39,001 nt of DNA from positions 7,912-46,912 of the forward strand of contig JBBJNO010000001.1 of NCBI GenBank assembly GCA_037720875.1, read 5' to 3'. Numbering within the stretch: the first letter of the stretch is position 1; every line of letters starts with the position of its first letter. This document shows positions 3 to 38,881 of the stretch, piece by piece. Under the pieces are notes generated by a model. The model was given only the letters and a program-made list of their open reading frames with translations, did no database searches and was not told the DNA's origin. A program made the position numbers and the translations under genes. The stretch comes from Luteimonas sp. (GTDB taxonomy: Bacteria > Pseudomonadota > Gammaproteobacteria > Xanthomonadales > Xanthomonadaceae).

Positions 3-506
3 TTGCGTTTGAAGAAACGGGTGATAGTGGACGTCATCGTGCTGGCCGGCCTGTACACGATCCGCATCATTGCCGGTTCGGTACTGGTGGCGGCCGCGTT
101 CTCGTTCTGGCTGCTGGCGTTTGCGATGTTCCTGTTCCTGAGCCTGGCAATGCTCAAGCGCTATACCGAATTGCTGTCCCTCCTCGACCAGGGCAAGGAC
201 AAGACCAGCGGCCGCGGTTACGACGTCGAGGACCGGCACCTGGTGCAATCGATGGGCACGGCAAGCGGCTACCAGGCGGTGCTGGTGCTGGCCCTGTACA
301 TCAACAGCACGGCCAGCGAACTGCTGTACCGCCGCCCGCAGGTGCTCTGGCTGCTGTGTCCACTGCTGCTGTACTGGATCAGCCGGGTGTGGATGATTGC
401 CCACCGCGGCCTGATGCGGGACGACCCGGTGGTGTTCGCGGTCACCGACCGCGCCAGCCAGGTCATCGTGCTGATCTGCGCACTCGTCGTGGCAGGCGCG
501 ATCTGA
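3..506 (+). CDS. UbiA-superfamily polyprenyl-phosphate phosphoribosyltransferase (Rv3806c-like), 5' end outside the window
   Basis: The frame is open to the window edge. The C-terminal region is hydrophobic and multi-helical (VLAGLYTIRIIAGS, FWLLAFAMFLFLSLAMLKRY, GYQAVLVLALYINS). Its stop overlaps the start of a clear DprE1 homolog by 1 nt (TGATG, 504-508). The family call rests partly on this context. Confidence 0.6.
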   Translation: MRLKKRVIVDVIVLAGLYTIRIIAGSVLVAAAFSFWLLAFAMFLFLSLAMLKRYTELLSLLDQGKDKTSGRGYDVEDRHLVQSMGTASGYQAVLVLALYINSTASELLYRRPQVLWLLCPLLLYWISRVWMIAHRGLMRDDPVVFAVTDRASQVIVLICALVVAGAI

Positions 507-1810
507 TGGCGGCAGGTCAGTCGTGGGGACGTTATCCCCAAGCAGAACAACGGCTGCTCACGCCTGCCCGTGCCGATCAGCCGATCGATGCCGGGGGCGA
601 CCGCTGGCTGCCCTATGGCAACGGACGCAGCTATGGCGACAGCTGCCTCAACGACGGCGGCACGCTGGTGCACACGCGGCGCCTGGATCATTACCTGGCC
701 TTCGATCCGGCCACCGGCCTGCTGCGCTGCGAATCGGGTGTGCAGCTGGCCGACATTCTCGCGCTGGTCGTGCCGCAGGGCTGGTTCCTGCCGGTGTCGC
801 CCGGCACCAAATACGTCACCGTGGGCGGCGCCATCGCCAACGACGTGCATGGCAAGAACCACCACCAGGCCGGTACCTTCGGCGAACACGTGCACTCCTT
901 GGAATTGCTGCGCAGCGATGGCGGACTCGGTTCCTGTAGCCGCCAGCACAATGCGGAACTGTTCACCGCGACCATCGGCGGCCTCGGCCTGACCGGCCTG
1001 ATCACTTCGGCGGAGATCGCACTGCGGCAGATTCCCGGCCCGTGGCTCGCCACCGAGAGTTGCAAGTTCGGCAACCTCGAAGAATTCTTTGCGTTGTCGG
1101 CCCAATCCGACCAGGCCAATGAATACACGGTGGCCTGGATCGATTGCACCGCGCGCGGCGCGGCGCTGGGCCGTGGCCTGTTCGCGCGCGGCAATCACGC
1201 CGCACCAGTAGTGACGCCGCGCGCACCCGCGCGCACCCGACTTGGCATGCCGTTCACGCCGCCGCTGTCCTTGGTCAACTCGTTGAGCCTGCGCGCGTTC
1301 AACACGCTTTACTGGCACCGGCAATGGCGTCAGCGTCGGGCGTCGGTCAGCCACTACGAACCGTTCTTCTATCCACTGGACGCGCTGGCCAACTGGAACC
1401 GCATGTACGGCCCGAAGGGCTTCCTGCAGTACCAATGCGTGGTGCCGCCCATTGGCGCGGCCGAGACGACTGCCGAACTTTTGCGACGCATCCAGGCCAG
1501 TGGCGCGGGGTCGTTCCTGGCCGTGCTCAAGCAGTTTGGCGATCGCCCGCCCGCAGGTCTGCTGTCGTTTCCGCGGGCAGGCACGACGCTGGCGCTGGAT
1601 TTCCCGATCGACCGGGCCGGCAGCGTCTTCAAGCTGCTCGACGGCCTGGACGACGTGGTGGCCGACGCCGGCGGCGCGGTCTACCCGGCCAAGGATGCGC
1701 GCATGTCGGGTCGGCGTTTCCGGCAATATTTCCCGGCCTGGGAGCAATTCCAGGCCTTCATCGACCCGCAGGTCTCGTCGAGTTTCTGGCGACGCGTCAT
1801 GGAATCCTGA
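506..1810 (+). CDS. dprE1: FAD-dependent decaprenylphospho-beta-D-ribofuranose 2'-oxidase homolog (DprE1-like)
   Basis: ORF 356..1810 trimmed to the ATG at residue 51 (506). Motifs GRSYGD, VTVGGAIANDVHGKNHH, GGLGLTG, FYPLDALANWNRMYGPKGFLQYQCVVP, LSFP....LDFP and YPAKDAR are colinear with M. tuberculosis DprE1 (Rv3790) as I recall its sequence. Confidence 0.9.
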   Translation: MAAGQSWGRYPQAEQRLLTPARADQPIDAGGDRWLPYGNGRSYGDSCLNDGGTLVHTRRLDHYLAFDPATGLLRCESGVQLADILALVVPQGWFLPVSPGTKYVTVGGAIANDVHGKNHHQAGTFGEHVHSLELLRSDGGLGSCSRQHNAELFTATIGGLGLTGLITSAEIALRQIPGPWLATESCKFGNLEEFFALSAQSDQANEYTVAWIDCTARGAALGRGLFARGNHAAPVVTPRAPARTRLGMPFTPPLSLVNSLSLRAFNTLYWHRQWRQRRASVSHYEPFFYPLDALANWNRMYGPKGFLQYQCVVPPIGAAETTAELLRRIQASGAGSFLAVLKQFGDRPPAGLLSFPRAGTTLALDFPIDRAGSVFKLLDGLDDVVADAGGAVYPAKDARMSGRRFRQYFPAWEQFQAFIDPQVSSSFWRRVMES

Positions 1811-1814
1811 GCAA

Positions 1815-2552
1815 ATGCAGAACGTGCTGATCATCGGAGCCACCTCGGCCATCGCCGAAGCCTGCGCGCGCAGGTATGCCGCCGCCGGCGCCGCCTTGTA
1901 CCTGACCGGTCGCGACGCCGCCCGGCTGCAGCTCATCGCCGCCGACCTGAGGGTGCGCGGCGCGCGCGCCGTGCATACCGATCTACTCGATGTCGTCGAC
2001 GACGCCCGACAGGAACAGGTAGTCGCAGCGGCCTGGCAGGCGCTCGAACGGGTGGACGTGGTGCTGGTCGCTCACGGCACCCTGCCCGACCAGGCCCGGT
2101 GCGAAACGTCCCCGGAATACGCGGTGGCCGAATTCAACCTCAACGCCACCGCCACCATCGCCCTGCTGACCCGGCTGGCACCGCGCATGGCGGCGCAGCG
2201 GCAGGGCAGCATTGCGGTGATCTCCTCGGTGGCGGGCGATCGCGGGCGCGCCAGCAATTACCTGTACGGCAGCGCCAAGGCCGCGGTCAGCGCGTTCCTG
2301 AGCGGACTGCGACAGCGGCTGTCGCGCGAAGGCGTCAACGTGCTGACCATCAAGCCAGGCTTCGTGGACACGCCGATGACCAGCCAGTTCCAGAAAGGGC
2401 CGCTGTGGGCCAGTCCGGACCAGGTGGCGGCCGGCATCCTGCGCGCCGTGGACAGGCGCCGGAGCGTGGCTTACCTGCCGTGGTTCTGGGCGGGAATCAT
2501 GCTGGTGATCAAGCACATCCCCGAATTCGTGTTCCGCAGGATCAGGCTGTGA
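1815..2552 (+). CDS. dprE2: Short-chain dehydrogenase, decaprenylphospho-2'-keto-ribofuranose reductase homolog (DprE2-like)
   Basis: ORF 1452..2552 trimmed to the ATG at residue 122 (1815), 4 nt after the dprE1 stop. It has an SDR N-terminus (IIGATSAIAEA), a catalytic YGSAK, and the C-terminal tail LPWFWAGIMLVIKHIPEFVFRRI, which matches the Rv3791 tail pattern. Confidence 0.85.
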   Translation: MQNVLIIGATSAIAEACARRYAAAGAALYLTGRDAARLQLIAADLRVRGARAVHTDLLDVVDDARQEQVVAAAWQALERVDVVLVAHGTLPDQARCETSPEYAVAEFNLNATATIALLTRLAPRMAAQRQGSIAVISSVAGDRGRASNYLYGSAKAAVSAFLSGLRQRLSREGVNVLTIKPGFVDTPMTSQFQKGPLWASPDQVAAGILRAVDRRRSVAYLPWFWAGIMLVIKHIPEFVFRRIRL

Positions 2553-3502
2553 GCGAGCCCGAACTGCAGGACGCGAAGGTCGTCCTCACCGGTGCCGCCG
2601 GCCTGGTCGGGCAGAACCTGCTGGTCGAACTTGAGGAGCTGGGTTACAGCCGACTGGTTGCCATCGATAAGCATGCGTACAACCTTGCGATCCTGCGGGA
2701 ACTGCACCCGCAGGTCCAGGTTGTCGAGGCGGATCTTGCCGAGCCAGGCGCCTGGCGGGATGTATTCGCCGGTGCACACATAGTCGTGCAACTGCATGCC
2801 CAGATCACCGGCAAGCACCATGCCCAGTTCGAACGCAACAACCTGGTTGCCACCCGGCATGTCCTGGATGCCTGCCGGCAGCATGGGGTGCCGTATCTGG
2901 TGCACATCAGCTCGTCGGTGGTCAATTCGGTCGCCGATGACAGCTATACGCAGACCAAGAAGTCGCAGGAAGCGCTGGTCATCGCCAGCAGCGTGCGTCA
3001 TTGCGTGCTGCGCCCCACCTTGATGTTCGGCTGGTTCGATCCCAAGCACTTGGGGTGGCTCTCGCGGTTCATGTCCAGGACACCGGTATTTCCCATCCCC
3101 GGCGACGGACGCTACATGCGCCAGCCCCTGTACGAGCGCGATTTCTGCCGTTGCATCGTTTGGTGCCTGCAACACCAGCCCGACGGCGCGGTTTATGACA
3201 TCGTCGGTGACACCCGCATTGACTACATCGACATCATCCGCACCATCAAGCGAGTCAAGAAGTTGCGTACCCTGATCGTCCCGATTCCGGTGCGGATGTT
3301 CGCCTTGCTGCTGCGTACCTATGCCTTGTTCTCGCGCAAACCTCCGTTCACCGCCGACCAGCTCATGGCACTGACGGCGGGCGACGATTTTCGGGGCACC
3401 GACACGGCGGCGTTGTTTGGCGTCAGGCAAACTCCGTTTGAAGAAGCCATCCGCGAGAGCTACTGCGATTCGCGCTACAGCCCCATTGTCCTGAAGCGAT
3501 GA
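2549..3502 (+). CDS. NAD-dependent epimerase/dehydratase (extended SDR)
   Basis: The GTG at 2549 overlaps the dprE2 stop (GTGA). A Rossmann motif VVLTGAAGLVGQNL lies at residues 11-24, and there is a YTQTK (YxxxK) motif. There is no in-frame ATG upstream of the Rossmann motif, so the GTG start is required. Confidence 0.8.
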   Translation: MSEPELQDAKVVLTGAAGLVGQNLLVELEELGYSRLVAIDKHAYNLAILRELHPQVQVVEADLAEPGAWRDVFAGAHIVVQLHAQITGKHHAQFERNNLVATRHVLDACRQHGVPYLVHISSSVVNSVADDSYTQTKKSQEALVIASSVRHCVLRPTLMFGWFDPKHLGWLSRFMSRTPVFPIPGDGRYMRQPLYERDFCRCIVWCLQHQPDGAVYDIVGDTRIDYIDIIRTIKRVKKLRTLIVPIPVRMFALLLRTYALFSRKPPFTADQLMALTAGDDFRGTDTAALFGVRQTPFEEAIRESYCDSRYSPIVLKR

Positions 3503-3506
3503 CCCC

Positions 3507-4814
3507 ATGATCCAAAAGCACTATGCAGTACTGGGCGCTGGCCCCATGGGCTTGATGGCCGCGCTGGAACTGCTACGGAAAGGCCACGTGGTGGACATCT
3601 ACGAGCGCGACGACCGCATCGGCGGCATGTCCGCCAGCTTCAACTTCGACGGACTGGAAATCGAGCGTTACTACCACTTCATCTGCAAGACGGACACGCC
3701 GTTGTTTGGGCTGCTTGACAATATGGGCATAGCCGACAAGCTCAAATGGTCCGACACCAAGATGGGCTATTTCTACAATGGCCATTTGTACAAATGGGGC
3801 TCTCCACTCGCGCTGCTTGCGTTCCCCAAGCTCGGCCTCATCAGCAAACTGCGCTATGCCCTGCACGTGATGGTGGCCAAGAACATCAGCGACTGGTCGC
3901 GGCTGAATCGGGTCAACGCGACCGCGTGGCTGCGCAAGTGGCTGGGCAAGCGCGGTTACGAAGTGCTGTGGCAGCGCACGTTTTACCTGAAGTTTTTTGA
4001 GTACACCGATCACCTGTCAGCCGCGTGGATCGGCACGCGCATTAAGCGTATCGCCCTGTCGCGCAGGAACCTCCTCCAGGAAAGCCTGGGTTACCTCGAG
4101 GGCGGTTCGCAGATACTGCTGGCGCGCATGGAGCAGGCCATCCTCGCACTTGGCGGGCGCATCCACCTGCGCAAGGGCATCGATCGCGTGGTTACCGAAC
4201 ATGGCACGGTCACTGGCATCCTGGTCGCAGGCCAGTTCCATCCCTGCGACGCCGTTGTCTCGACCGCACCCATCCAGTACATCCCGTCGCTCGCGCCGGA
4301 TCTGCCCGCCGACTTCGTCAGGCAAATCGGACGCGTCGAAAACATCCCGGTGGCGTGCGTGATCCTGAAGCTGCGACATTCGGTCAGCGAGAATTTCTGG
4401 ATGAACATCAGCGACCCGGACATGGGCATCCCCGGGATAATCGAATATTCAAACCTCAATCCTGGCACGCGCGAGGGTGAGCACATCGTGTATGCGCCGT
4501 TCTACATGCCCAAGACCCACCCCAAGTGGTCCAACAGCAACGATAAATTGATTTCGGAAGTCATCGGATACCTCGGCCGCATCAATCCAGCCTTTACCGA
4601 GGACTGGGTCATCGCCCGGCACTGCCACCGTTACGAATTCGCGCAAACCATTTGCCCGCCTGGCTTCATGGAAATCCTGCCGTCGATGCGCACGCCCTTG
4701 GCGGGTTTGTTCATGGCGGACACGTCTTACTACTACCCGGAAGACCGCTCGATCTCCGAAAGCATCCAGGCGGCGCGCAGGCTGGTTGATGAAGTGCTCG
4801 CGGAGCCTGCGTGA
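3507..4814 (+). CDS. FAD/NAD(P)-binding oxidoreductase (amine-oxidase / phytoene-desaturase-like fold)
   Basis: It has an N-terminal dinucleotide-binding motif, YAVLGAGPMGLMAALELLRKGHVVDIYERDDRIGG. The 435-aa ORF starts 4 nt after the previous stop. Its substrate is unknown. Confidence 0.8.
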   Translation: MIQKHYAVLGAGPMGLMAALELLRKGHVVDIYERDDRIGGMSASFNFDGLEIERYYHFICKTDTPLFGLLDNMGIADKLKWSDTKMGYFYNGHLYKWGSPLALLAFPKLGLISKLRYALHVMVAKNISDWSRLNRVNATAWLRKWLGKRGYEVLWQRTFYLKFFEYTDHLSAAWIGTRIKRIALSRRNLLQESLGYLEGGSQILLARMEQAILALGGRIHLRKGIDRVVTEHGTVTGILVAGQFHPCDAVVSTAPIQYIPSLAPDLPADFVRQIGRVENIPVACVILKLRHSVSENFWMNISDPDMGIPGIIEYSNLNPGTREGEHIVYAPFYMPKTHPKWSNSNDKLISEVIGYLGRINPAFTEDWVIARHCHRYEFAQTICPPGFMEILPSMRTPLAGLFMADTSYYYPEDRSISESIQAARRLVDEVLAEPA

Positions 4815-5206
4815 AGTCGGAGTTCCTGCGATTCATCGTCGTCGGCGCCATCGCCGCCATTGCCAATATCGGGTCGCGCATTGTCTTCAGTCAATGGATG
4901 GCATTTGTTCCCGCGATGGCAGTGGCCTTCGTGATCGGGCTGACGACCGCGTTCCTGCTCAATCGCAGCTGGGTGTTCATTGGAAGCGGCAAGCGGTGGT
5001 TCCATGAAGCGGCCTGGTTTCTAGGGATCAATCTCCTGGGCTTGGCACAGACATTGGCCATCGCCTGGGTGCTCGCACGACACCTACTACCATCACTTGG
5101 GCAACGTCTGTTGGTGATGGAAACGGCCCACAGCATCGGCGTAATCATTCCGATCCTTACCAGCTACCTCGGCCACAAATACTTCACCTTCAAGAGACGA
5201 CCCTGA
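4811..5206 (+). CDS. gtrA: GtrA-family small membrane protein (putative polyprenyl-phosphate-sugar translocation factor)
   Basis: The GTG start overlaps the previous stop (GTGA), with GGAG 5 nt upstream. It is 131 aa with 4 hydrophobic helices. It has the family pattern FLRFIVVGAIAAIANIGSR...NRSWVF...GHKYFTFK. Confidence 0.8.
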   Translation: MKSEFLRFIVVGAIAAIANIGSRIVFSQWMAFVPAMAVAFVIGLTTAFLLNRSWVFIGSGKRWFHEAAWFLGINLLGLAQTLAIAWVLARHLLPSLGQRLLVMETAHSIGVIIPILTSYLGHKYFTFKRRP

Positions 5207-5871
5207 TGTCCGACGACGATCTTCAGCAGCTGTACCGCCATCGTTTCGCCCAGAGCGAGCTGCCCGCCAAGAACGCAATCTGGGAGGTGCTTTGCAGATT
5301 TTTCTTCCAGCGGTTCGTCGATGCCGAGAACGACACCGTGCTGGACCTGGCGTGCGGCTATGGGGAGTTCATCAACAACATCCGGGCGAAGAAGAAAATC
5401 GCGGTTGACCTCAATCCTGACAGCCCCGCCGCGCTGCGCGATGGCATCGAATTTCATGCCGTGCGCGCCGATGCGCTCGAACCTGTCGCGTCGGGCACGG
5501 TCGACATCGTGTTCACGTCCAACTTCTTCGAGCACCTGCCGGACAAGACGGTGCTTGCCGAAGTGCTGCAGGAAATCAATCGCGTCCTCAGGCCTGGCGG
5601 CACGCTGATCGCCATGGGGCCCAATATCCGATACCTACCCGGCGAATACTGGGATTTCATCGATCACCATTTGCCGCTGTCCGAGCGATCCTTGACGGAG
5701 GCATTGCAGATGAGCGGATTCAGGATGACCCGCGTGGTGGATCGCTTCCTGCCCTACACGACTCAGTCGCGTCTCCCCAAGGCCCCGTTGCTGGTGCGGA
5801 TATATTTGAGTGTCCCGGCCGTATGGCGCTTCTTTGGAAAACAGTTTCTGGTTTTCGCAAGTAAGGCCTAG
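5206..5871 (+). CDS. Class I SAM-dependent methyltransferase
   Basis: It overlaps the gtrA stop by 1 nt (TGATG). Motif I is VLDLACGYGEF, and the post-I and motif II region is VDIVFTSNFFEHL...LRPGGTLI. Confidence 0.85.
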   Translation: MSDDDLQQLYRHRFAQSELPAKNAIWEVLCRFFFQRFVDAENDTVLDLACGYGEFINNIRAKKKIAVDLNPDSPAALRDGIEFHAVRADALEPVASGTVDIVFTSNFFEHLPDKTVLAEVLQEINRVLRPGGTLIAMGPNIRYLPGEYWDFIDHHLPLSERSLTEALQMSGFRMTRVVDRFLPYTTQSRLPKAPLLVRIYLSVPAVWRFFGKQFLVFASKA

Positions 5872-5884
5872 CGCGCCTCACTTG

Positions 5885-8245
5885 TCACGGAACAATGGTC
5901 ACTGGGAACTTGAATTCGGGACACAACTGCAGCTTTCCCGCATTGTTCATTCCCAGACCCAAGGCGTACTTGCCCCCGAATTCCGAGATGTCGCCCAAGG
6001 TGGTGAATCCCGACCCGCTCATCCTTGGGTTCTTGAAATATTTGCCTACGTCCGGACGCATGGCGAGCTGGGTGTTCAGATAATGGTGAACGCCTTTGGC
6101 ATCCGTCAGCACAACATAAACGGCATCCGCGAGCGATCCATTTTCGATCGAGCCGATCAGCCATCCCTCGACCCGGAGGGGGTCTGAAGTTGAAATGCTG
6201 ATCGCAGCGGGAAGCGCGTGGCCCAGCGCATCGATCGCGCCGGTGCATTTTTCCAGAGTCTGCGCATCTTGCGACGACAATGCTGCGTCAAAGTGATGGC
6301 GTTTGTTCAAACCCGGTATCTCAGGCACAGGTATCACCGGAACCTGGCTGAAGGCAAGCGAGTAAGTCCGGTTCCAGTCAAGGCTGTGCTCGGCGGCAGA
6401 AATCGATAGCGACTTGACTCGCTTCCAGTCCCTCAGGGGTTTTTCCGCATATAGCCGTGAAAACTCTTCCGCGTTTTCTATCAAGGGCGATATCACGAAC
6501 CCTGTTCTTGTCATCCCGGAAATGATGCGGTAGCGTCTTTGCTCGCCATTGCTCATCTCAAGACTGATCTGCAGCTGGGTTGGCTTGTACAGAACGCTTG
6601 CCATGAGTCCGGCTACGCTGGGCTTGATATCGATTTGTACGAATATTGGTCCGGTAGATGCGGGCAGCTCCACCTTTTCCCCAAAAGCATGATCCGCGCT
6701 TCCGAGTTTAATGGGCAGCGCTCGCGCACCTTCCTGTTGCCTCTTGCGCAGAACCAGAAATCCATTCTCAATCCGTTTAGGTTCGTACCCTGTGAGCAAC
6801 ATAGGCCAGCTGGCACCGTCATCCATGGATGGAAACCTCCAGTCAATCGGCTGCACCTTGAAGAAAATATTGTCAGGAGCCCGCTCAGACAACAAATGTT
6901 CACTGTTGGCCGTAGCCAGACCGGGTGTATACGCGGCATAACTCTGGAAAGCCGGGCGTGGAGACCAAGTGTTGCCGGAGGCAATGAGGAACGATTGATC
7001 GAACGAGTAGATATCAGAAGTGCCTTGCAAGAGGGACAGTGGCGACTGCGCTCGAAGAGATGCCAGTGAAGCATCGAATCGCCGCTTCAGCAGGGTTTCG
7101 TCCCTATACCGGCTCTTGAAACCATCCCACGCAGCCGCATAGGTGGACACTAGATTCTTGCCGAATCGATCGATGGAAGTCCTGATGAACTGCGCATCGA
7201 TCAGCGCCCACGAAAACACTGCGACGGCAATCGCAGGAAACGTGAAGTTGCTCGTGATCAAGGCAGGCAACAACAACGCTGCGAGAAGGATCGCCGTACC
7301 GGCAGTCACTGCGTGGCCGTCGTGGCGAACGAATCCCGCCTTGAATGAAACAAACAGGAACAGCGAAAAACCCAGTCCGAGAAACAGTCTTGCTGCCACG
7401 CTGCTTCTGGCTTTGCTAAAAAAAATTGCAACCAAGATCAAAACGCAGGCAGCAAGATACGCGATCACTTGGCCGAACATGCCCTCGGTGGCCATCGCCT
7501 CGGTGTAGCCAGCACTGCTCTGCGCCATGCGAATGACGTACTGGGGCAGCAGCGCAAGAGGTTGCCCCGCCAACAACCAGGACAACATCATGGCCGCTAC
7601 AGGAGAGGCCAAGCTGACAAGAGCGAGAGCGCGATGTTTTTTCAGCATCAAAAACAAGAAACACAAGGCAGCTGTTGCCGCGGCCAGGATCAGAGCCGAT
7701 CCTTTTATCAAGGGCAGGAATCCGAGTGGCGCAAAAGCAATGGCCACGTGCAAGGAGGCCCACCGGCTTGGGGCTCGAGATCCCTCTTCGGCGGAAACAA
7801 GATTGAAAATGACGATGTCGGCGAGCACGGCAAACGAAAGCAGCAACGGGTCGCGGAACATCAGCCCCGCATACAGTGCCCACAAGACGAGCATCCACCA
7901 TCGTTTGGCGTTGACCAGTACCAGGGCCAAAATTACAACGTAAGACAGAGCCAGGTAAATGCTGCCCGCCATCATCCGCAAATCCGTGCTCGGGTGATAC
8001 AGCTTCGTGTAGATCGAAGCGTATGGGCCTGAAGTGAAATTGATATCGCTCCCGAACGAGAGGCCTTGCGCGACGGCTTGATTCAGGCCCATCTGCCAGG
8101 ACGGATCTAGATTTCCAGCCGGCATTTCCGGGGTAAACGGCACAAAAATCGCCACGGCCGTAAGCAGCAGCAAGAGCCAGATACCGGCATCGAATATTTT
8201 ACCGAGCCTGTCCAAGCTGGCGCTCTTGTATGGATGTATTTGCAT
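5885..8245 (-). CDS. Large polytopic membrane protein with a C-terminal soluble domain; candidate GT-C-fold glycosyltransferase
   Basis: ORF 5885..8425 trimmed to ATG 8245 (MQIHPYKS...). The first roughly 430 aa contain at least 10 hydrophobic segments, with an acidic first loop (PEMPAGNLDPSWQMG). These are followed by roughly 350 aa of soluble, beta-rich sequence. I cannot name the family from sequence alone. Confidence 0.55.
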   Translation of the reverse strand: MQIHPYKSASLDRLGKIFDAGIWLLLLLTAVAIFVPFTPEMPAGNLDPSWQMGLNQAVAQGLSFGSDINFTSGPYASIYTKLYHPSTDLRMMAGSIYLALSYVVILALVLVNAKRWWMLVLWALYAGLMFRDPLLLSFAVLADIVIFNLVSAEEGSRAPSRWASLHVAIAFAPLGFLPLIKGSALILAAATAALCFLFLMLKKHRALALVSLASPVAAMMLSWLLAGQPLALLPQYVIRMAQSSAGYTEAMATEGMFGQVIAYLAACVLILVAIFFSKARSSVAARLFLGLGFSLFLFVSFKAGFVRHDGHAVTAGTAILLAALLLPALITSNFTFPAIAVAVFSWALIDAQFIRTSIDRFGKNLVSTYAAAWDGFKSRYRDETLLKRRFDASLASLRAQSPLSLLQGTSDIYSFDQSFLIASGNTWSPRPAFQSYAAYTPGLATANSEHLLSERAPDNIFFKVQPIDWRFPSMDDGASWPMLLTGYEPKRIENGFLVLRKRQQEGARALPIKLGSADHAFGEKVELPASTGPIFVQIDIKPSVAGLMASVLYKPTQLQISLEMSNGEQRRYRIISGMTRTGFVISPLIENAEEFSRLYAEKPLRDWKRVKSLSISAAEHSLDWNRTYSLAFSQVPVIPVPEIPGLNKRHHFDAALSSQDAQTLEKCTGAIDALGHALPAAISISTSDPLRVEGWLIGSIENGSLADAVYVVLTDAKGVHHYLNTQLAMRPDVGKYFKNPRMSGSGFTTLGDISEFGGKYALGLGMNNAGKLQLCPEFKFPVTIVP

Positions 8246-8884: not shown

Positions 8885-9283
8885 ATGCGTACCGTCATCT
8901 TCTATTCGCTGTTTGCCGGCATCGCGATGTTGATCAATCTCGCCACTCAAGCGACCGTGGTGCATTGGTATGCAGGGGCGTACGCCATACCGCTGTCGGT
9001 GCTCGCAGGTACGATTTCCGGTGTTTCTGTCAAATACGTACTGGACAAGAACTACATTTTTCGCAAGTCGTATTCGCGCATTGACCGGCATATCCGCTCC
9101 GCCTCTCTCTACCTGGTTGCCAGCGTGGCCACCACATTGATTTTCTGGGGGGTCGAAGCGGCATTCCATTTTGCCTTCGGGTCCGCGGAGATGCGTTATC
9201 TGGGCGGTGCAATCGGCTTGACCCTGGGTTACATCCTCAAATTCCATCTCGACAAGAAGTTTGCGTTTGGAGGGGATAGCTAG
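8885..9283 (+). CDS. gtrA: GtrA-family small membrane protein (second copy)
   Basis: It is 132 aa with four hydrophobic helices. It carries the family signatures KYVLDKNYIFRK and KFHLDKKFAFG. Confidence 0.8.
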   Translation: MRTVIFYSLFAGIAMLINLATQATVVHWYAGAYAIPLSVLAGTISGVSVKYVLDKNYIFRKSYSRIDRHIRSASLYLVASVATTLIFWGVEAAFHFAFGSAEMRYLGGAIGLTLGYILKFHLDKKFAFGGDS

Positions 9284-9425: not shown

Positions 9426-11270
9426 TTATTTTACCGAGACAAGCACCCAGTCCGTATCGGGGTTGCCGTTGTTGTCGATCACGATCGTCAACTTGGCATT
9501 TCCATCCACATCAATCACGGCGGTCTGTGGCGCATTGGTCGTTACCACCGCTGCATGCAGCACAGCATCCCCGGAGATGATCCGGGCACTGACGTTGCCT
9601 GCGCCGCGCCTGATCGCATCCTCGGGAATATTTGGAGCCATGCTGATGGTCACGGCGGCCGTCTCTTGCCCGCTGGCCTTTGCAAATTTGTTCAAGTCGA
9701 ATGCGAAACGGGTGGGTGTGGTCAAGCCCGGATGTACGAACAACGACAAGCCCTGCGCGTGCACTGTGCCGAATTGGTCGCCGGCCTCGATTTCCCCGAC
9801 ATAGCTCATGAGGTCCCTGAGCGGCTCGCTATTCGAAACCCTGTCGAGCACGTCCTCCCTGGCAATCACCAGGAAGGAGTAATCGCCGCCTGCCTTCGCC
9901 GTCTTGTCGAAGACCTTGATGACAACGTAGTCCTTGGCGAATGCAGGGCTCGGCTGTGACGTGCTTTGCATGATGACGATCTCCGGCTCATACCGGGCGA
10001 CCACATCGCCTTCCTCATATTTACGATTGAGGAAGGAGCAGTCGATCACGTGCCGCCGGGAGTAGTAGGCCGGGTTGCCCCAGCAGGTCAGTACCCGGAA
10101 GTCTCTTGGTGTGTTGGCCGCCACCCATCGCCCGGCTTCCGCACGATCGTATTCCTGATGGGCGTTGTAGGTTTTGTACAGTTTGGTCAATGCACGTTCG
10201 CGGGGAATTCCGAAGAAGAAGATCGACAGCAAGACTAGCGCGGGAACGCCGATACTCAAGGCAGGCGCAAACCGGCCGGCTCGCGCGCCAACCAGCCCGG
10301 ACACTGCCTGCATGCCCATGGCTGCAAGCGCGAACAGGGCAAATACTGCTGGCATGGCATACCAGTTGTAGGGCTCGAAGGGATACTTGAGCGTGTAAGC
10401 GAGCACGTGCGCGGCCAGACTTGCGCACAGGAAGATGAGCAGTGGCAGACGCCTGCGACACAACAACAGGCAGGCGGCGACTGCGAGGCCTGCGGACCAG
10501 AGGTGATTCCCCAAAAAGACCGTCTTGCCGAACCACGTCCAGTCAATGACCCGGGGATGGTTTTGCTGATGCAAAATCTTGGTCAAAAATGAGTTGGGGA
10601 CAGGCGCACCGAAATAGACCCATGCAAACCCATACCAGGCCAATGCTATTGCGGCGGCAACGATGACCGCCCTGACCGGGAACCTGCCCTCCCGCAGCCA
10701 ATGCGCCGCAAGCAACAGGCCGCCGACGGGGACAAGATCGAGCTTGTTGACTATCAACAGCCCTGCGACGACACCGACCATCCACGCGCGTGGTGTGCCC
10801 AGCAGTGACCAGACAGCCAGCGCAAGCAATAGAAACGTCAGCGGAGTCTCGAGGCCCGCGCCCACGAAATACATTGTTTCCGTGTCGAAAGCCGACAGCG
10901 CGACAAAGCTCAGTCCGGCCACAAGACCCACCCTGCGCGCCAACACCAATGCCGTCAGCGAAAGAGCGATGGCGCTCATGCCGATCCCGGCACCGACCAG
11001 TGCCGACACTGGCGATACGCCGAACTTCATCACCAGTGCGATGACTAGAGGATGGAGCGGAGCGCTCGCGCCCCACACCGGCGCCTCGCCTGGATTCCAC
11101 ACCCAGAACTCGCCCTGGAGCATGTTTTCCGCATAACGCAGGAAAAAAGCCGCGTCATCCGCGATTTCCATGCCCACCTGCGCGCGCATGGCAAACACGT
11201 AGAGGATGACTGCCAGGATGAAAAAAAACAGCCTGTGCAATGGGCTTTCCATGTTGAAATACTTACTCAT
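9426..11270 (-). CDS. GT-C-fold membrane glycosyltransferase (ArnT/Emb/Aft-like) with a C-terminal beta-sandwich domain
   Basis: ORF trimmed to ATG 11270, with GGAG..GGGG upstream. There are roughly 11 hydrophobic segments. The first-loop motif is EIADDAAFFLRYAENMLQGEFWVWNPGEAPVWGASAPLH, a DD motif typical of GT-C enzymes. A C-terminal stretch of about 200 aa is soluble and ends in KLTIVIDNNGNPDTDWVLVSVK. Confidence 0.7.
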   Translation of the reverse strand: MSKYFNMESPLHRLFFFILAVILYVFAMRAQVGMEIADDAAFFLRYAENMLQGEFWVWNPGEAPVWGASAPLHPLVIALVMKFGVSPVSALVGAGIGMSAIALSLTALVLARRVGLVAGLSFVALSAFDTETMYFVGAGLETPLTFLLLALAVWSLLGTPRAWMVGVVAGLLIVNKLDLVPVGGLLLAAHWLREGRFPVRAVIVAAAIALAWYGFAWVYFGAPVPNSFLTKILHQQNHPRVIDWTWFGKTVFLGNHLWSAGLAVAACLLLCRRRLPLLIFLCASLAAHVLAYTLKYPFEPYNWYAMPAVFALFALAAMGMQAVSGLVGARAGRFAPALSIGVPALVLLSIFFFGIPRERALTKLYKTYNAHQEYDRAEAGRWVAANTPRDFRVLTCWGNPAYYSRRHVIDCSFLNRKYEEGDVVARYEPEIVIMQSTSQPSPAFAKDYVVIKVFDKTAKAGGDYSFLVIAREDVLDRVSNSEPLRDLMSYVGEIEAGDQFGTVHAQGLSLFVHPGLTTPTRFAFDLNKFAKASGQETAAVTISMAPNIPEDAIRRGAGNVSARIISGDAVLHAAVVTTNAPQTAVIDVDGNAKLTIVIDNNGNPDTDWVLVSVK

Positions 11271-11384
11271 CCCCTGCTTCTCCGTTCCAGCGCGCGCAGC
11301 ACATATCGACACTGGCAATCCCGATCTCCGTGACAATCCGGCCGGCGGACCGAGGCCATCCGCAGTGATTGTCTCCTCGATGTT

Positions 11385-13736: not shown

Positions 13737-15286
13737 TGCGCCGAGTTCCCTCGGTCATCGATTGTCAGCCACCGCAATGGCGCCGACCAGCGCCAGCTTC
13801 GTGATTGCTGCAGCCCCTCAAGCGATTCCGAAAGCGCCTGGCGCTCGTCTTCGCGCAGCTTCACCAATGCTTCCAGTTCCCGCGCCCGCCTCTCAAACAC
13901 CGCAATCTGACCTTTCGCTGCATCCAGTTCGACAGCCATTGCCTTCGCTTGCTGCTTGTGCTCCAACACTCGCTCCTGTTGAAGCGTCAACCCGTGATCG
14001 CTTTCCTGAATCTGTCGGCTCAACTGCTCGGCAGTGGAGGCATGGATCTTTAACTGCGTATTAACTGCTGCCAACTGCGAATTGACCGCCGCAAGCTCAT
14101 CCTGATGGGCTGCCGATTGTTCCTCGGCCCGGGACACATACGCCTTGAACTGGGCATCGATCGACGCCAACTCCTCCTGACTGGCGGCGGATTGCGCCTG
14201 TGCCTCGGTAATGGTTGCCTGCTGCGTCGAGATGTGCCGTTGCAGGTCCTGGATGTCGCGCGCCACAAGTCTTGACTCGGCGACATGGGCGCGGGCGTTC
14301 TGGTCAGCGGCCAGCAACTGCGCCGCAGCCTCTGCAAGATCCGCCTTGCGATCGGCGACTTGTCCATTGAGCAATTTGATCTGCTCTTCGCGGTCGGCGA
14401 TTTCCTGCATCAGGTGCTCAAGGTGTCCGGTCTGGATTTTGGCAAACGCGTCGGCTTTGCCAAGTTGCAGGTTCGCATCGGCAATCTGCGTTTGGGCAGC
14501 ATCAAGCTGCAACTTCAGCTGCCGTTGCAGCGCGCGGTGCGCGACGAGTTCGGCTTCACGGGCTTGCGGCTGGCCGTTGACTACGTCGTCATACGAGAGG
14601 GTCTCGACGCGGGCGGCAGCGCATTCGAACAGCCGCAGCGCCAATGCTTCCTCGTCGGCGTCCATCTGTGACAGGGCGAGCACGCTGTCCGGTAGCACCC
14701 GACCCACCAGCAGGACGCCAAGACCATGCGAATGATGGAATTCGAACGACGGATACCGCTTTGCCATTTCGGACCACAGCTTCCAGACGCCAAACTCCCG
14801 TTCGCGAACCATGGTGTCGTGGAAGAGGACGACGCCGCGCTCCGAAAGCTTGGGCAACCAGGTCTCCAGGTCGTGCCGAACCGCTTCGTAGGTATGCAAT
14901 CCATCGATATGCAGCAAGTCGATGCTGCCGTCGGCGAAGTAAGAGAGTGCGTCGTCGAATGTCATGCGCATGAGCTGTGAGAAGCTCGCGTACAGGTTGT
15001 CATGCGTGGCGCGCAAGGTGTCGTAGATCTCGTCGTCGTAGGCGCCGGCGTGCTCATCGCCTTGCCATGTGTCCACCGCAAAACACTTGCTGGGCAAATC
15101 GTTTTCGCGCACGGCCTGACAAAAAGCCAGGTACGACGTGCCGGTGTGGGTGCCCAGTTCCACCAGCACCATGGGTTTGAGTTCTTCAACGATCCAGCCT
15201 GCAAACGGGATATGCCCGATCCACGCGCTGGGGGGCACATTCAGCGGCTTCATGAACATGCTGGTGTTGAGTTTGAACGCGCTCAT
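13733..15286 (-). CDS. SAM-dependent methyltransferase (Methyltransf_24/CmcI-like) fused to a coiled coil of about 250 aa; WbdD-like O-antigen chain terminator/ruler candidate
   Basis: The N-terminal motifs are [12 protein letters not shown] and [15 protein letters not shown]...VVLFHD. Residues from about 241 to 494 are Q/A/E/L-rich heptad-like sequence with no Pro or Gly clusters. The C-terminal motif is [13 protein letters not shown]. It is ATGA-coupled to wzt upstream and to the GT4+RgpF gene downstream. Confidence 0.8.
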
Positions 15287-16710
15287 GGTGTCCTCGTTGT
15301 GAGACTTGTTTCGGTGTCGTCCGTAGCATTCGAATCATCAACCACGGCCTGCAGGCTGATCGCGCGCATCGAAACGCCGACCAGACCGGTCGACACGCTG
15401 GTCGCATGCGACTCTAGGACGATTGCGTCGTGGATCCATTCGGCCTGTTGGTGCTCCAGCTGCGTACCGTAGGCGATGGAGACGTCGAAGGAATATTGCC
15501 CCTTGGGGAGGATGGGCATCCTGAATTCAAAGCAGGCTTTGAGGCATTGGCCCGCGGCGATCGCGACCGGCGAATCCGCGTAGGCCAGATAGGTGTTGTC
15601 GCCGATCAGATGCTGGCCCAGCCGGTCCTTCAGGAAGAAACCGACGATCGCGCTGTGCAAAACCGAGTTGGTCCTGCCGTTCACTTCCAGCCGGACGATT
15701 TCCCCCCCGACGATCCACGAGATGGGATGCCTCAGGGCATCGGTGAGCCGGGCCGAGGTAACGTGCGCCGAACCATCGCCAAAGCCCGATCGATTCGGAT
15801 CGAAGCGGAATACTTCGATGTCGTTGCGTAGATGCGAGCGCGCAATCAGCGCCGCGCGCGGATCGGTGATGGCATCCTCGTCGGTGGCGTCAGACGCTAC
15901 GGCCGGCTGCATGGGCAGCGAATACGCGGCCGACGCGTGATACGCCTCGGACACATCCTTGGCGGTCCCCTGCATCGCCAAGTTCCCGTGCTCGAGCATG
16001 AGCGCGCTGTCGCACAGGTTTACCACCGCCGCGGCGTCGTGACTCACGAACAGGACGGTGCCTGTCTCCTGGAACTTGCGCAGGAAGCGCATGCATTTCT
16101 GCCCGAAGAACACATCGCCGACCGACAGCGCCTCGTCGATGACGAGGATGTCCGCGTCGGCATGGGCGATCACCGCGAACGCCAGCCGCACGAACATGCC
16201 GCTGGAATAGGTCTTCACCGGCTGGGCGACGAAATCGCCGATGTCGGCAAATGCAACGATGTCGTCATAGCGGGCGTCGATCTGCCGGCGCGTGAGGCCC
16301 AGCACCGCGCCGCTCATGTAGATGTTTTCGCGGCCGGTGAACTCAGGATTGAAGCCGCTGCCCAGTTCCAACAGCGCGGCGACACGGCCGTTGACTTCGA
16401 CGCTGCCCGACGTGGGCGTGAGGGTGCCGCAGATGATCTGCAGCAGCGTCGACTTGCCCGAGCCGTTGCGACCGATCACTCCCAGGGTTTCCCCCTTGCC
16501 GACATCGAATGACACATCGCGCAACGCCCAGAAGTCGCGGTAATAGGCGCCGGCCGGCTTGCCCACCATGCGTTGCATGCGGGGCAGCAGGGCCTGCTTG
16601 AGCCGGTCTTCCGGGCGGGCGTAGACCTGGTAACACTTCGACAGTCCGCGGACGCGGATGGCCGGTGGGGGCCGATGCGGGTCCAGCGTGGTGCCGGCTT
16701 CAGGTGACAT
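15283..16710 (-). CDS. wzt: O-antigen ABC exporter ATP-binding protein Wzt with a C-terminal glycan-binding (Wzt_C-type) domain
   Basis: It has Walker [10 protein letters not shown], signature YSSGM and Walker B ILVIDE. It also carries an extra domain of about 180 aa after the NBD. I chose the start at ATG 16710 (MSPEAG..., AAGG upstream). GTG 16767 is an alternative start. Confidence 0.9.
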
Positions 16711-16821
16711 CGGCAAAGCCTTTGCAAACGGCTGGTGACGCAGCTGGTCCGCACGCCCGCGCTTCACCTGTCACCGCACCGGTCTTCCATATGGAAGGTG
16801 TGCAAGGGACGTCCAAGGGCC

Positions 16822-19188: not shown

Positions 19189-19242
19189 CTTCAATCATCT
19201 CGGAAATGTTTGCGGAAAGATTCCGGCCCAGGTCTCTGGGTC

Positions 19243-19270
19243 GGCAATGGCAATGGCAATGGCAATGGCA
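19243..19270. repeat. Hexanucleotide tandem repeat (GGCAAT)x4.7, which reads ATTGCC on the transcribed minus strand
   Basis: Read directly from the sequence: ggcaat ggcaat ggcaat ggcaat ggca. It sits at the centre of the 123-bp wzm-to-glycosyltransferase intergenic region (19195-19317). Confidence 0.95.
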
Positions 19271-19317
19271 GGTCGACAAAGCATGCGCGGCACCTTCACC
19301 GAGCCGGCCGGGATCTC

Positions 19318-21380: not shown

Positions 21381-21657
21381 GCTGTGGTCTCTAATGAACT
21401 AGACCGCCAATTTTATCACCGGCCCATGCTGCGGATCGACCACGCCAGGCTGGGGTCACGCAAAATACCGGGCTGTGATGGCTTGACAGCCAGGCCTACG
21501 GGCCCGGAGCGGGACAGAACCGCAGTCGAGTCCAGCAACCGGTGGGGGATCATCACTGCCCACCATTGCCACCAAAGTGCATTTTGCATCCACTGCGCGG
21601 AATCGCGCTCATATGCACGTGCCGGCGTCACCGATTCCGCCACCGGCGCAGGATTCG

Positions 21658-24971: not shown

Positions 24972-24972
24972 T

Positions 24973-27172: not shown

Positions 27173-27181
27173 TCCCACCGC

Positions 27182-28138: not shown

Positions 28139-28139
28139 G

Positions 28140-33261: not shown

Positions 33262-33399
33262 ATATGTCCTAGATGCGTACAAAGCCGTCAGTTCTCAGGC
33301 ATCGCTGCAGTCGCCTCGAAAGATTACCGAGCTTGGCGGATCTCCCTTTCGAACGACGCTGGGCGAGCTCGCCATGCTGGTTACGTCGTCCACCCGGCG

Positions 33400-36995: not shown

Positions 36996-38877
<1,882 letters not shown>

Positions 38878-38881
<4 letters not shown>

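Follow-up and report, generated by a model that had tools for sequence, protein, structure and literature searches.

The window, by which we mean the whole 39,001-nucleotide stretch of DNA analysed here, carries, to judge from its genes, a D-rhamnan O-antigen locus of the Wzm/Wzt type. It comes from an uncultured member of the Lysobacteraceae, and its proteins are ~60-80% identical to those of named genera. The ABC-transporter O-antigen pathway is represented by wzm, wzt, gmd, rmd and manC, and includes the following genes:

15283..20190, minus strand: Wzt with a C-terminal CBM (PF14524 and PF00005), an RgpF/GT4 polymerase-type glycosyltransferase (PF05045 and PF00534) and Wzm (PF01061)
36996..38881, minus strand: Gmd and Rmd, for GDP-D-rhamnose synthesis (PF16363, 418.8 and 222.3 bits)

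At the left end of the window (3-5871) are seven genes on one strand:

3..506, plus strand: HAD-phosphatase/UbiA polyprenyl-phosphate phosphoribosyltransferase (PPPRS-PRP), C-terminal 167 aa, cut by the window start
506..1810, plus strand: DprE1 homologue, FAD-dependent polyprenyl-P-ribose 2'-oxidase type (PF01565)
1815..2552, plus strand: DprE2 homologue, classical SDR 2'-keto reductase type (NF005489)
2549..3502, plus strand: NDUFA9-like extended SDR (PF01370; TGxxGxxG, SSS and YxxxK motifs)
3507..4814, plus strand: FAD oxidoreductase of the NF005560 family with a phytoene-desaturase/protoporphyrinogen-oxidase fold (profile and predicted structure)
4811..5206, plus strand: GtrA-family small membrane protein, putative flippase for lipid-linked pentose (PF04138, 71 bits)
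5206..5871, plus strand: class I SAM methyltransferase, accessory cassette gene (PF08241, PF13489)

The junctions are overlaps of 1-4 nt or gaps of 4 nt. The ATG start codons of genes 2 and 7 (506-508 and 5206-5208) overlap the TGA stop codons of genes 1 and 6 (504-506 and 5204-5206); GTGA overlaps join gene 3 to gene 4 (2549-2552) and gene 5 to gene 6 (4811-4814), with GTG as the start codon of genes 4 and 6; and 4-nt gaps separate the TGA codons of genes 2 and 4 (1808-1810 and 3500-3502) from the ATG codons of genes 3 and 5 (at 1815 and 3507). The stop codon of gene 7 is at 5869-5871. Genes called separately on two Logan contigs of the same samples have identical boundaries, and no promoter- or terminator-like sites above shuffle expectation were found within 3-5871. 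The first-pass annotation of seven coupled same-strand genes inside an ABC-transporter O-antigen locus is borne out for all seven open reading frames and all six junctions, and its family assignments hold in profile searches (the UbiA tail, FAD_binding_4, adh_short, Epimerase, Amino_oxidase/NAD_binding_8, GtrA_DPMS_TM and Methyltransf_11).

The UbiA, DprE1, DprE2 and GtrA proteins are true homologues of the mycobacterial DPA proteins, as had been proposed, with PDB matches to DprE1, DprE2 and DPPRS. The truncated UbiA product aligns with positions 315-479 of 482 of NF006088 (PRK08238; 243.6 bits) and matches only M. tuberculosis DPPRS (8J8J/8J8K) in the PDB. The upstream HAD and UbiA part missing from the window is supplied by a contig from the same sample (L002); its UbiA gene is frameshifted, which counts against the interpretation favoured below, and after correction scores 589.9 bits with NF006088 and ~151 bits with the DPPRS models. 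M. tuberculosis DprE1 is the best PDB match of the DprE1 homologue, aligned over residues 9-421 with E 3e-74; the protein keeps the AKD lysine and the HGKNHH motif and has Ala at the position of the benzothiazinone-target Cys387 of the mycobacterial enzyme. For the DprE2 homologue (NF005489, 339 bits; cutoff 267) the top PDB match is M. tuberculosis DprE2 (E 1.2e-33), followed by the next SDR at 3.5e-17. Both fall short of the NCBIfam equivalog cutoffs, with 360.7 bits for DprE1 (NF053785; curated cutoff 500) and 188 bits for DprE2 (cutoff 250), a further point against the favoured interpretation.

The fourth gene had been called an epimerase/dehydratase, but by the coverage of its PDB matches it is NDUFA9-like and not GalE-like: full-length matches are to the complex-I subunit NDUFA9, and GalE- and RmlB-type structures cover the Rossmann part only. 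Its Ser-Tyr-Lys triad is intact, and it probably works on lipid-linked pentose as an NAD(P)H-dependent keto-reductase or epimerase. With a median identity of 74% over 78 loci it is the most conserved cassette protein (medians for the FAD protein, DprE2 and DprE1 are 67%, 66% and 62%). The flavoprotein matches NF005560 with 515 bits (cutoff 252), and Foldseek searches with its AF2 model (pLDDT 86.5) place rice PDS 5MOG (TM 0.79-0.80), PPOX 2IVD and 3KA7 on top; UDP-galactopyranose mutase is absent from the top 50. The modelled fold is that of monotopic membrane dehydrogenases with lipophilic substrates. Enzymes of the PDS/PPOX/amine-oxidase fold usually oxidise C-C or C-N bonds and not sugar hydroxyls, which speaks against the favoured interpretation. 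Relatives of the flavoprotein are present in 393 species genomes, and distant ones are fused to methyltransferases, a GT2 or a flippase-like TM domain, or adjoin YfhO-type GT-C genes; these fusions and neighbours point to polyprenyl-P-sugar donors as the theme of the family. Some distant relatives have no SDR partner at all, so that the flavoprotein need not be one half of an oxidase/reductase pair; this too counts against the favoured interpretation. The literature assigns no reaction to the SDR, the flavoprotein or the methyltransferase, another point against it. Because the SDR and FAD genes are co-inherited with the DPA-type genes, the earlier proposal that the lipid-linked pentose is converted further is a reasonable one.

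Hydropathy peaks of the GtrA protein fit about four TM segments, and in almost every related locus its gene comes after the FAD gene. The methyltransferase has no characterised close homologue in the PDB. Its homologues occur in 22 of the 67 evaluable loci (33-71% identity, median 53%) at several positions within the cassette, and plasmid homologues with at least 50% identity are found only in records that also bear the cassette; the family travels with the cassette as an optional member.

The order UbiA-DprE1-DprE2-SDR-FAD-GtrA is present at 63 of the 67 evaluable Xanthomonadales loci and on plasmids of Burkholderia, Agrobacterium and Rhodobacteraceae, a recurrence far beyond chance. On these comparisons the cassette is an old and mobile gene unit, a regular part of Xanthomonadales LPS loci and not peculiar to the window. 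The view of the operon as a DPA pathway extended by three extra genes has to be given up, as the six-gene form is the Xanthomonadales norm, found also on alpha- and beta-proteobacterial plasmids, with the methyltransferase as the single variable gene. In four Dokdonella-type loci UbiA, SDR and FAD genes are present and DprE1/E2 are missing, and in S. maltophilia R551-3 DprE1, DprE2 and UbiA occur with no SDR/FAD pair; the two modules can thus be parted and would not have to work in series, which counts against the favoured interpretation. In its favour, the cassette is also borne by X. translucens DSM 18974 (L022), for whose LPS rhamnose and xylose are reported and arabinose is unmentioned (PMC8042644); against it, UDP-xylose could be the source of this xylose.

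Candidates for the transfer step, and a second GtrA, lie elsewhere in the window:

5885..8215, minus strand: GT-C-like membrane glycosyltransferase candidate with a C-terminal beta-sandwich domain (776 aa as called; ORF to 8425)
8885..9283, plus strand: second GtrA-family protein, gtrA_1 (NF037976, 152.8 bits)
9426..11336, minus strand: second GT-C-like candidate, 636 aa (hydropathy: hydrophobic N-terminal 380 aa and soluble C-terminus)
30952..33282, minus strand: third GT-C-like candidate, 776 aa, convergent with the amino-sugar genes

None of the three GT-C-like products has a Pfam match. The first, encoded directly after the operon and convergent with it, has 13 hydropathy peaks (some overlapping) in residues 77-414, a near-invariant Asp37 in the first loop and a soluble C-terminal half. 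The best Foldseek matches of its AF2 model (pLDDT 88.6) are the GT-C enzymes AglB, Pmt4, ArnT, Pmt1/2 and ALG3, all weak (E 2e-3 to 0.2), with lectin-like matches covering the C-terminus; that its predicted GT-C identity is based on weak fold matches tells against the favoured interpretation. A homologue (36%) is the first gene of the same operon in B. stagnalis, and in loci L004 and L005 a homologue comes after GtrA; cassette-associated GT-C genes are highly variable (24-47% identity). The second candidate has weak homologues (26%) inside two other cassettes (L012 and L026) and may use either pentose or an amino sugar as donor, and the third has multiple hydropathy peaks (some overlapping) in its first 430 aa. 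A separate, ArnC-like amino-sugar system of the Gtr type appears to be encoded at 24973-30510 plus 8885-9283; gtrA_1 shows no BLAST similarity to the GtrA of gene 6 and probably serves this separate side-chain system.

The earlier statement that outside actinobacteria the UbiA-DprE1-DprE2 trio is known only from pilin and Nod-factor systems is outdated. Kelly et al. (PNAS 2024; PMC11127046) define a system type consisting of a lipid-pentose synthase, a flippase and a GT-C, prove it by experiment in Citrobacter youngae, where it modifies the O-antigen, report DprE1/E2 homologues in loci of Araf-containing glycans, O-antigen pentofuranose systems among them, and describe the Xanthomonas locus of X. 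citri CFBP 6533 as 'more elaborate', with several epimerases and GT-Cs. The C. youngae O1/O2 parts are ORF15 (PPPRS-PRP), ORF14 (flippase), ORF12 (GT-C/GT136) and ORF13 (epimerase). The window resembles them in its fused phosphatase and UbiA-type phosphoribosyltransferase, its small flippase, a large GT-C-like protein that ends in a beta-sandwich domain, the auxiliary epimerising enzymes predicted to act before export and the Wzm/Wzt D-rhamnose-type O-antigen locus, the comparisons with GT136 and of ORF13 with the SDR being by description. However, its flippase is GtrA-type where ORF14 is assigned as MATE-type, and epimerisation would involve DprE1/E2 and the NDUFA9-like SDR, with a PDS/PPOX-fold flavoprotein and a methyltransferase.

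Patil et al. (2007; PMC2238763) had already listed the whole set, together with the methyltransferase, for X. oryzae pv. oryzae BXO8 (ORF9-17) and X. citri 306 (AAM38431-38438), although they did not recognise the DPA-type pathway. This etfA-side LPS block contains the same families: a prenyltransferase (481 aa), an oxidoreductase (433 aa), a short-chain dehydrogenase (242 aa), a type-11 methyltransferase (223 aa), an NAD-dependent epimerase (312 aa), a 'protoporphyrinogen oxidase/phytoene desaturase' (430 aa), GtrA and large uncharacterised membrane proteins. It adjoins wzm, wzt and metB, and G+C drops across it as in the window. The methyltransferase gene lies between the two SDR genes there but after GtrA in the window, where metB and manC separate the two halves of the LPS region.

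With the mycobacterial DPA pathway (Rv3806c, Rv3807c, DprE1/Rv3790, DprE2/Rv3791, Rv3789 and the Emb/Aft GT-Cs) the cassette shares homologous phosphoribosyl transfer, C2 oxidation/reduction and flipping, and final transfer by a GT-C outside the cytoplasm. It differs in that the phosphatase is a fused HAD domain instead of a PAP2 protein, undecaprenyl-P presumably serves as the carrier, the sugar would be a side chain on a rhamnan instead of an arabinan polymer, and the SDR/FAD/methyltransferase set has no counterpart in the mycobacterial gene cluster. The P. aeruginosa group IV pilin (TfpW) and rhizobial Nod-factor (noeCHOP/noeN) systems likewise use Gram-negative UbiA, DprE1 and DprE2 for a lipid-linked D-Araf donor, but their acceptors are pilin and lipo-chitooligosaccharide, and they lack the SDR/FAD pair and the methyltransferase. 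Gtr-type O-antigen glucosylation (GtrA/GtrB/Gtr*) and CsbB/GtcA/YfhO teichoic-acid systems share a lipid-monophosphate donor, a GtrA-family flippase and a GT-C acting after polymer export, and YfhO genes are among the neighbours of distant flavoprotein relatives; unlike that of the cassette, their donors are GT2-made from nucleotide sugars without remodelling on the lipid.

We think it probable that the operon supplies the donor-making half of a three-component extracytoplasmic system that places a pentose side chain on the Wzm/Wzt-exported D-rhamnan. By homology, the HAD-UbiA fusion would transfer ribose-5-P from PRPP to undecaprenyl phosphate and remove the 5-phosphate, the DprE1 and DprE2 homologues would oxidise and re-reduce C2 to give lipid-linked D-arabinofuranose, GtrA would flip the lipid-linked sugar, and the GT-C-like 5885-8215 protein would move it onto the polymer in the periplasm. 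The SDR and flavoprotein, as a fixed pair, may act on the membrane-bound polyprenyl-P-pentose before flipping, most likely in a second oxidation/reduction inverting another centre, which from D-Araf would yield D-lyxofuranose (C3) or L-xylofuranose (C4); the methyltransferase, where present, would methylate this product in the cytoplasm.

A less likely alternative is that DprE1/E2 and SDR/FAD each use undecaprenyl-P-ribofuranose to make two donors, for example Araf and Xylf, which different or promiscuous GT-Cs place at different positions in a more complex side-chain pattern. The separate occurrence of the modules, the three GT-C-like and two GtrA proteins of the window and the extra Pfam-less membrane genes inserted within many related cassettes agree with such branching, as do the GT-C of Kelly et al. 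that takes both Ribf and Xylf donors and their suggestion that elaborate loci may permit 'more elaborate side-chain additions' (PMC11127046). However, the B. stagnalis operon has all five enzymes with one GtrA and one detected homologue of the 5885-8215 protein (mem846), the ArnC-like amino-sugar system accounts better for at least one of the GtrA proteins and one of the GT-Cs in the window, and the tight translational coupling and fixed order suit one pathway.

It is rather improbable that the pair, and the methyltransferase where present, act on the polyprenyl carrier instead of the sugar, for example by saturating, desaturating, isomerising or methylating one of its isoprene units, and so mark a dedicated lipid pool for periplasmic glycosylation. 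The nearest folds (phytoene desaturase, carotenoid desaturase and PPOX) and the best named NCBIfam neighbours (HpnE and CrtI-type enzymes; HpnA and OleD for the SDR) would fit, and the FAD-methyltransferase fusions resemble the way in which methyltransferase and FAD-reductase are combined in 10-methyl fatty-acid synthesis and sterol C-24 methylation. However, we know of no such modified undecaprenol from proteobacteria, the pair belongs to the pentose cassette, where it sits between DprE2 and GtrA, and is not tied to general carrier-lipid synthesis, the many invariant Arg, Lys and His residues of the flavoprotein family are better suited to an anionic head group than to a hydrocarbon, and the flavoprotein is constant whereas the methyltransferase is optional. 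Least probable is another envelope target (LPS core or lipid A, pilin or another protein, or a periplasmic or capsular glycan), for although the conservation of the donor-synthesis genes far exceeds what is usual for O-antigen backbones, DprE1/E2 systems do act on pilin and Nod factors, and not every plasmid copy adjoins wzm/wzt, the Xanthomonadales cassette sits inside a variable LPS locus beside wzm, wzt and metB, GT-C variability is expected for variable acceptors, and the experimentally solved prototype modifies O-antigen. The side-chain pathway on the D-rhamnan is the favoured reading, in which the window holds a further copy of a conserved cassette, catalogued before in Xanthomonas-type bacteria, that would build a membrane-lipid pentose for extracytoplasmic addition to O-antigen.

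The block at 3–5871 holds seven plus-strand ORFs, which encode in order the tail of a HAD-UbiA fusion (gene 1), homologues of DprE1 (gene 2) and DprE2 (gene 3), an SDR protein (gene 4), an FAD flavoprotein (gene 5), GtrA (gene 6) and a methyltransferase (gene 7). Re-reading of the sequence reproduces exactly the ORFs and all of the junctions described in the first-pass annotation, and the boundaries are identical when genes are called on two short contigs of the same samples.

Gene junctions in the block at 3–5871
504–508, plus strand: genes 1 and 2, TGA (504–506) overlapping ATG (506–508)
1808–1815, plus strand: genes 2 and 3, stop at 1808–1810 and ATG at 1815
2549–2552, plus strand: genes 3 and 4, GTGA
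3500–3507, plus strand: genes 4 and 5, stop at 3500–3502 and ATG at 3507
4811–4814, plus strand: genes 5 and 6, GTGA
5204–5208, plus strand: genes 6 and 7, TGA (5204–5206) overlapping ATG (5206–5208)
5871, plus strand: end of gene 7

A promoter and terminator scan of 3–5871 found no site above shuffle expectation. The G+C content falls along 3–8215 (63.5, 66.4, 69.0, 61.2, 59.3, 56.8 and 58.7% for genes 1–7, and 54.9% for the neighbouring GT-C-like gene), and the same gradient is reported for Xanthomonas oryzae BXO8 (PMC2238763); it suggests a conserved core joined to distal genes that are exchanged more often.

The gene-family assignments made earlier are correct, as judged by profile searches and by PDB matches to Mycobacterium tuberculosis DPPRS, DprE1 and DprE2. 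Gene 1 is the C-terminal 167 aa, or last third, of a protein of the 482-aa NF006088 family (model positions 315–479), which profile searches describe as a HAD phosphatase fused to a UbiA phosphoribosyltransferase; its N-terminal part lies outside the window, and its only PDB relatives are entries for the M. tuberculosis decaprenyl-phosphate phosphoribosyltransferase. A Logan contig from the same sample (L002) supplies the upstream HAD and UbiA fusion, with 589.9 bits on NF006088 (cutoff 351) and ~151 bits on DPPRS models after correction of a 1-nt frameshift. Gene 1 and L002 together thus provide the phosphoribosyltransferase and the associated phosphoribose phosphatase of a three-component system. 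The frameshift (L002 565–575, upstream of window position 1) splits the gene within a conserved DRHHP|RKRRRP motif at a stretch of four C that needs a fifth to be in frame; an assembly error, a pseudogene or a tract prone to slippage may lie behind it, and if true it would switch off the entire pathway in that population.

Gene 2 is a clear DprE1 homologue (E 3e-74 to M. tuberculosis DprE1) that keeps the HGKNHH motif and the AKD lysine, and scores 360.7 bits on the NCBIfam DprE1 equivalog model, below a cutoff of 500 that is tuned to actinobacteria. Gene 3 has M. tuberculosis DprE2 as its best PDB match (1.2e-33), with the next SDR 16 orders of magnitude weaker; it scores 188 bits on the DprE2 equivalog model (cutoff 250, likewise tuned to actinobacteria) and passes NF005489. 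The DprE1 homologue (506–1810) has Ala where the M. tuberculosis enzyme has Cys387, to which benzothiazinones bind covalently, and because of this replacement it would be expected to be insensitive to these compounds.

Gene 4, previously described as an epimerase/dehydratase, does carry extended-SDR motifs (TGxxGxxG, SSS and YxxxK) with the Ser-Tyr-Lys triad, but a GalE-type epimerase is not indicated: matches of the GalE, RmlB and WbmF types span only residues ~10–135, and the full-length PDB likeness is to the complex-I subunit NDUFA9. Gene 5 scores 515 bits on NF005560, above threshold, and its AlphaFold model (pLDDT 86.5) most resembles rice phytoene desaturase (TM 0.8), protoporphyrinogen oxidases and the archaeal protein 3KA7. 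Its top 50 Foldseek matches are phytoene desaturases, protoporphyrinogen oxidases and amine oxidases; UDP-galactopyranose mutases are absent from these and from the PDB sequence hits, and with no GLF Pfam match a UGM-like furanose/pyranose mutase was rejected. Gene 6 (GtrA_DPMS_TM, 71 bits), translationally coupled to gene 5, is a putative flippase of the small (MATE- or SMR/GtrA-type) kind encoded with the synthase. Gene 7 is a small methyltransferase of class I, and the PDB contains no characterised protein that is closely related to it.

A scan with the flavoprotein, taking one genome per species, identified relatives in 393 genomes, and the best 80 of these are all Xanthomonadales, including X. 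translucens DSM 18974, X. albilineans, X. arboricola, X. vasicola, Stenotrophomonas, Lysobacter, Dyella, Rhodanobacter and Dokdonella. All six genes occur in the order UbiA-DprE1-DprE2-SDR-FAD-GtrA in 63 of the 67 evaluable loci, often with membrane genes lacking Pfam domains in the SDR–FAD or the FAD–GtrA interval. Of the 67 loci, 22 carry the methyltransferase, which occupies five different positions. The remaining four loci, three of them from Dokdonella (L042, L057 and L059; the fourth is L078), lack DprE1 and DprE2 and retain UbiA, SDR, FAD, GtrA and in some cases the methyltransferase, which suggests that the SDR/FAD module can start from a ribose donor. L042 and L057 also have a Pfam-less gene of ~1.25 kb (413 aa in L057) between SDR and FAD. 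Median identities between the window proteins and their homologues in the compared Xanthomonadales loci are highest for the SDR and the flavoprotein and lowest for the GT-C-like protein.

Median amino acid identity to homologues in compared Xanthomonadales loci
SDR (gene 4): 74%
FAD flavoprotein (gene 5): 67%
DprE2: 66%
UbiA: 64%
DprE1: 62%
GtrA: 44%
GT-C-like protein (5885–8215): about 30%

The six-gene order is also found on plasmids of Burkholderia stagnalis, Agrobacterium salinitolerans and a Rhodobacteraceae strain. In the B. stagnalis plasmid, homologues of the GT-C-like protein and the methyltransferase precede the six genes on the same strand, and plasmid homologues of the methyltransferase with at least 50% identity occur only on cassette-bearing plasmids. 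No flavoprotein relatives were found in viral contigs, and phage carriage of the elaborated cassette was dismissed on this ground.

The first-pass annotation had presented genes 4, 5 and 7 as three extra tailoring genes extending a mycobacterial-type operon. Synteny in 80 genome loci and four plasmid loci rules out a unique extension, and these genes belong to a block that was already catalogued: for the LPS loci of both X. oryzae BXO8 and X. citri 306, Patil et al. (2007) listed a prenyltransferase, oxidoreductase, SDR, type-11 methyltransferase, NAD epimerase, GtrA and a 'phytoene desaturase/protoporphyrinogen oxidase', and for S. maltophilia R551-3 only the first three (PMC2238763). The BXO8 ORF9-17/XAC block matches the window cassette in gene content and order, and in the families given in Table 1 of that paper. 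The belief that in Gram-negatives the UbiA/DprE1/DprE2 trio is known only from pilin and Nod-factor glycosylation is also outdated, because Kelly et al. (2024) report DprE1/E2 homologues in loci of Araf-containing glycans (PMC11127046). Experiments with Citrobacter youngae in the same study showed post-export attachment of alpha-pentofuranose side chains by a fusion of polyprenyl-P phosphoribosyltransferase and phosphatase working with a flippase and a GT-C, and the single SDR ORF13 was shown to convert a Ribf donor to Xylf (PMC11127046). The operon is another member of a widespread, already catalogued cassette whose system type was defined in 2024.

The GT-C-like protein (5885–8215, minus strand; 776 aa) converges on the operon. 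Its AF2 model is confident and shows a multi-TM N-terminal half followed by a C-terminal half that forms a beta-sandwich. The closest structural matches are without exception GT-C enzymes (AglB, Pmt4, ArnT, Pmt1/2 and ALG3) at weak scores (E 2e-3 to 0.2, TM 0.2–0.4), so that the fold search weakly supports it as a GT-C-like candidate; none of the three large membrane proteins has a Pfam domain, even at E=10. The genes downstream encode a second GtrA, another GT-C-like protein, two RgpF/GT4 paralogues, a coiled-coil methyltransferase, Wzt with a carbohydrate-binding domain, Wzm, MetB and ManC; then an ArnC-like GT2, a WecE-type aminotransferase, a NeuD-type acetyltransferase and WbqC; and then a third GT-C-like protein, GT4 enzymes, Gmd and Rmd. 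From this gene content the surroundings are predicted to be an ABC-transporter D-rhamnan O-antigen locus with periplasmic side-chain machinery, and the earlier placement of the pathway in an O-antigen locus is borne out by wzm, wzt, manC, gmd and rmd within the window. The nearest relatives of the locus proteins are in Lysobacteraceae metagenome bins.

Several other features of this region are of interest. The wzm, wzt and metB genes lie at 15283–21380, and etfA is expected upstream of the window start. In Xanthomonas metB forms one border of the LPS locus; here metB and manC/xanB (20187–23115, minus strand) lie in the middle of the LPS region and divide it into two halves. The two GT4 and RgpF ('rhamnan synthesis F') paralogues (11385–13736 and 16822–19194, minus strand; ~785 aa, 63% identical) lie on either side of the terminator and wzt genes. 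At 13733–16767 (minus strand) a 517-aa Methyltransf_24 protein with a long coiled-coil-like region (an SMC-model match) is encoded beside Wzt with its Wzt_C carbohydrate-binding domain, a pair that is a predicted signature of WbdD-like chain termination by terminal methylation. The plus-strand genes at 24141–30510 encode WbqC, an ArnC/PgfS-like GT2, two methyltransferases, a NeuD/PglB-type acetyltransferase and a WecE-type dTDP-4-amino-4,6-dideoxyhexose transaminase (600 bits). Together with gtrA_1 (8885–9283, plus strand) and the GT-C-like candidate at 9426–11336 or 30952–33282 (minus strand), they seem to form a second, independent periplasmic side-chain system, like the wxcK-O branch system of X. 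campestris. Within this amino-sugar gene group a 318-aa protein (27182–28138, plus strand) has weak likeness to GH130 beta-mannoside phosphorylases (Pfam E 0.009; NCBIfam 2e-8), an uncommon find in an O-antigen locus.

By homology and by the experimental prototype, PRPP and undecaprenyl-P would give lipid-P-ribose-5-P, which would be dephosphorylated and inverted at C2 by the DprE1/E2-type enzymes to lipid-P-D-Araf; the donor would be flipped by GtrA and the sugar moved onto the rhamnan by the GT-C. Because two further conserved redox enzymes sit between DprE2 and GtrA, Araf may be an intermediate and not the end product. The SDR and flavoprotein would act on the lipid-linked sugar before flipping, for several reasons: their place between DprE2 and GtrA is constant across four bacterial lineages, no other cassette proteins are as constrained, the SDR is reductase-like and the flavoprotein folds like monotopic membrane dehydrogenases. 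Evidence from the wider flavoprotein family, taken as 834 cluster representatives at E<=1e-30, points the same way, with fusions to two types of methyltransferase, GT2 or a flippase-like TM domain, and members adjoining YfhO-type GT-C genes or GT2 and an aminotransferase.

Distant members of the family (P0251, P0252, P0282, P0340 and P0352, and loci L088, L089 and L091) have 31–38% identity; the fused domains are class I or FkbM methyltransferases, GT2 or LPG_synthase_TM, and the YfhO-family genes are translationally coupled or adjacent on Acidobacteria-type contigs. An Embleya homologue has GT2 and DegT aminotransferase neighbours, a suggestive setting, but at 30% identity it is too distant for transfer of function.

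The most economical reading would be a second round of oxidation and reduction, with inversion at C3 to yield D-Lyxf or at C4 to yield L-Xylf, and methylation as an option. We tentatively propose, as a reading that may well be wrong, that the SDR and flavoprotein form a second two-enzyme redox epimerase acting on polyprenyl-P pentofuranose, analogous and not homologous to DprE1/DprE2, that converts lipid-linked D-Araf to a never-documented D-lyxofuranose or L-xylofuranose donor, O-methylated where the methyltransferase is present. Kelly et al. (2024) note that no solved glycan contains lyxofuranose (PMC11127046), and within the set of papers searched, literature on Lyxf, L-Xylf, L-xylose or later GT136 work did not go beyond that study. 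In X. translucens DSM 18974 (L022) the cassette lacks the methyltransferase; rhamnose and xylose are reported from the LPS of this strain, and arabinose is not (PMC8042644); no xylose or pentose data for X. citri LPS are given in PMC3391215. The X. translucens xylose fits a second inversion and could equally derive from UDP-xylose.

Two other explanations are possible. The DprE1/E2 and SDR/FAD modules are also found apart (in Dokdonella-type loci and in S. maltophilia R551-3), so that the pathway may branch, the two redox modules giving two donors. The enzymes may also act on the polyprenyl chain. Enzymes of the flavoprotein's fold usually oxidise C-C or C-N bonds, and distant relatives of the flavoprotein work without an SDR partner.

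L-xylose and 3-O-methyl-L-xylose have been reported in Stenotrophomonas and Xanthomonas LPS, and if the product is L-xylose, the cassette would be the missing biosynthetic route to these sugars. For the window alone, the outcome is mostly a correct re-identification of something catalogued, and it adds comparative evidence on the cassette. The SDR and flavoprotein are two of the five cassette enzymes and also the most conserved, and their chemistry would define how pentoses are remodelled on the carrier lipid; solving their reactions could bring to light a donor sugar and a flavoenzyme activity that are both new. Since the carriers include major plant pathogens and Stenotrophomonas, as well as Burkholderia and rhizobial plasmids, the cassette shapes a widely exposed surface antigen, with bearing on recognition by phages and plant immunity and on serotype.
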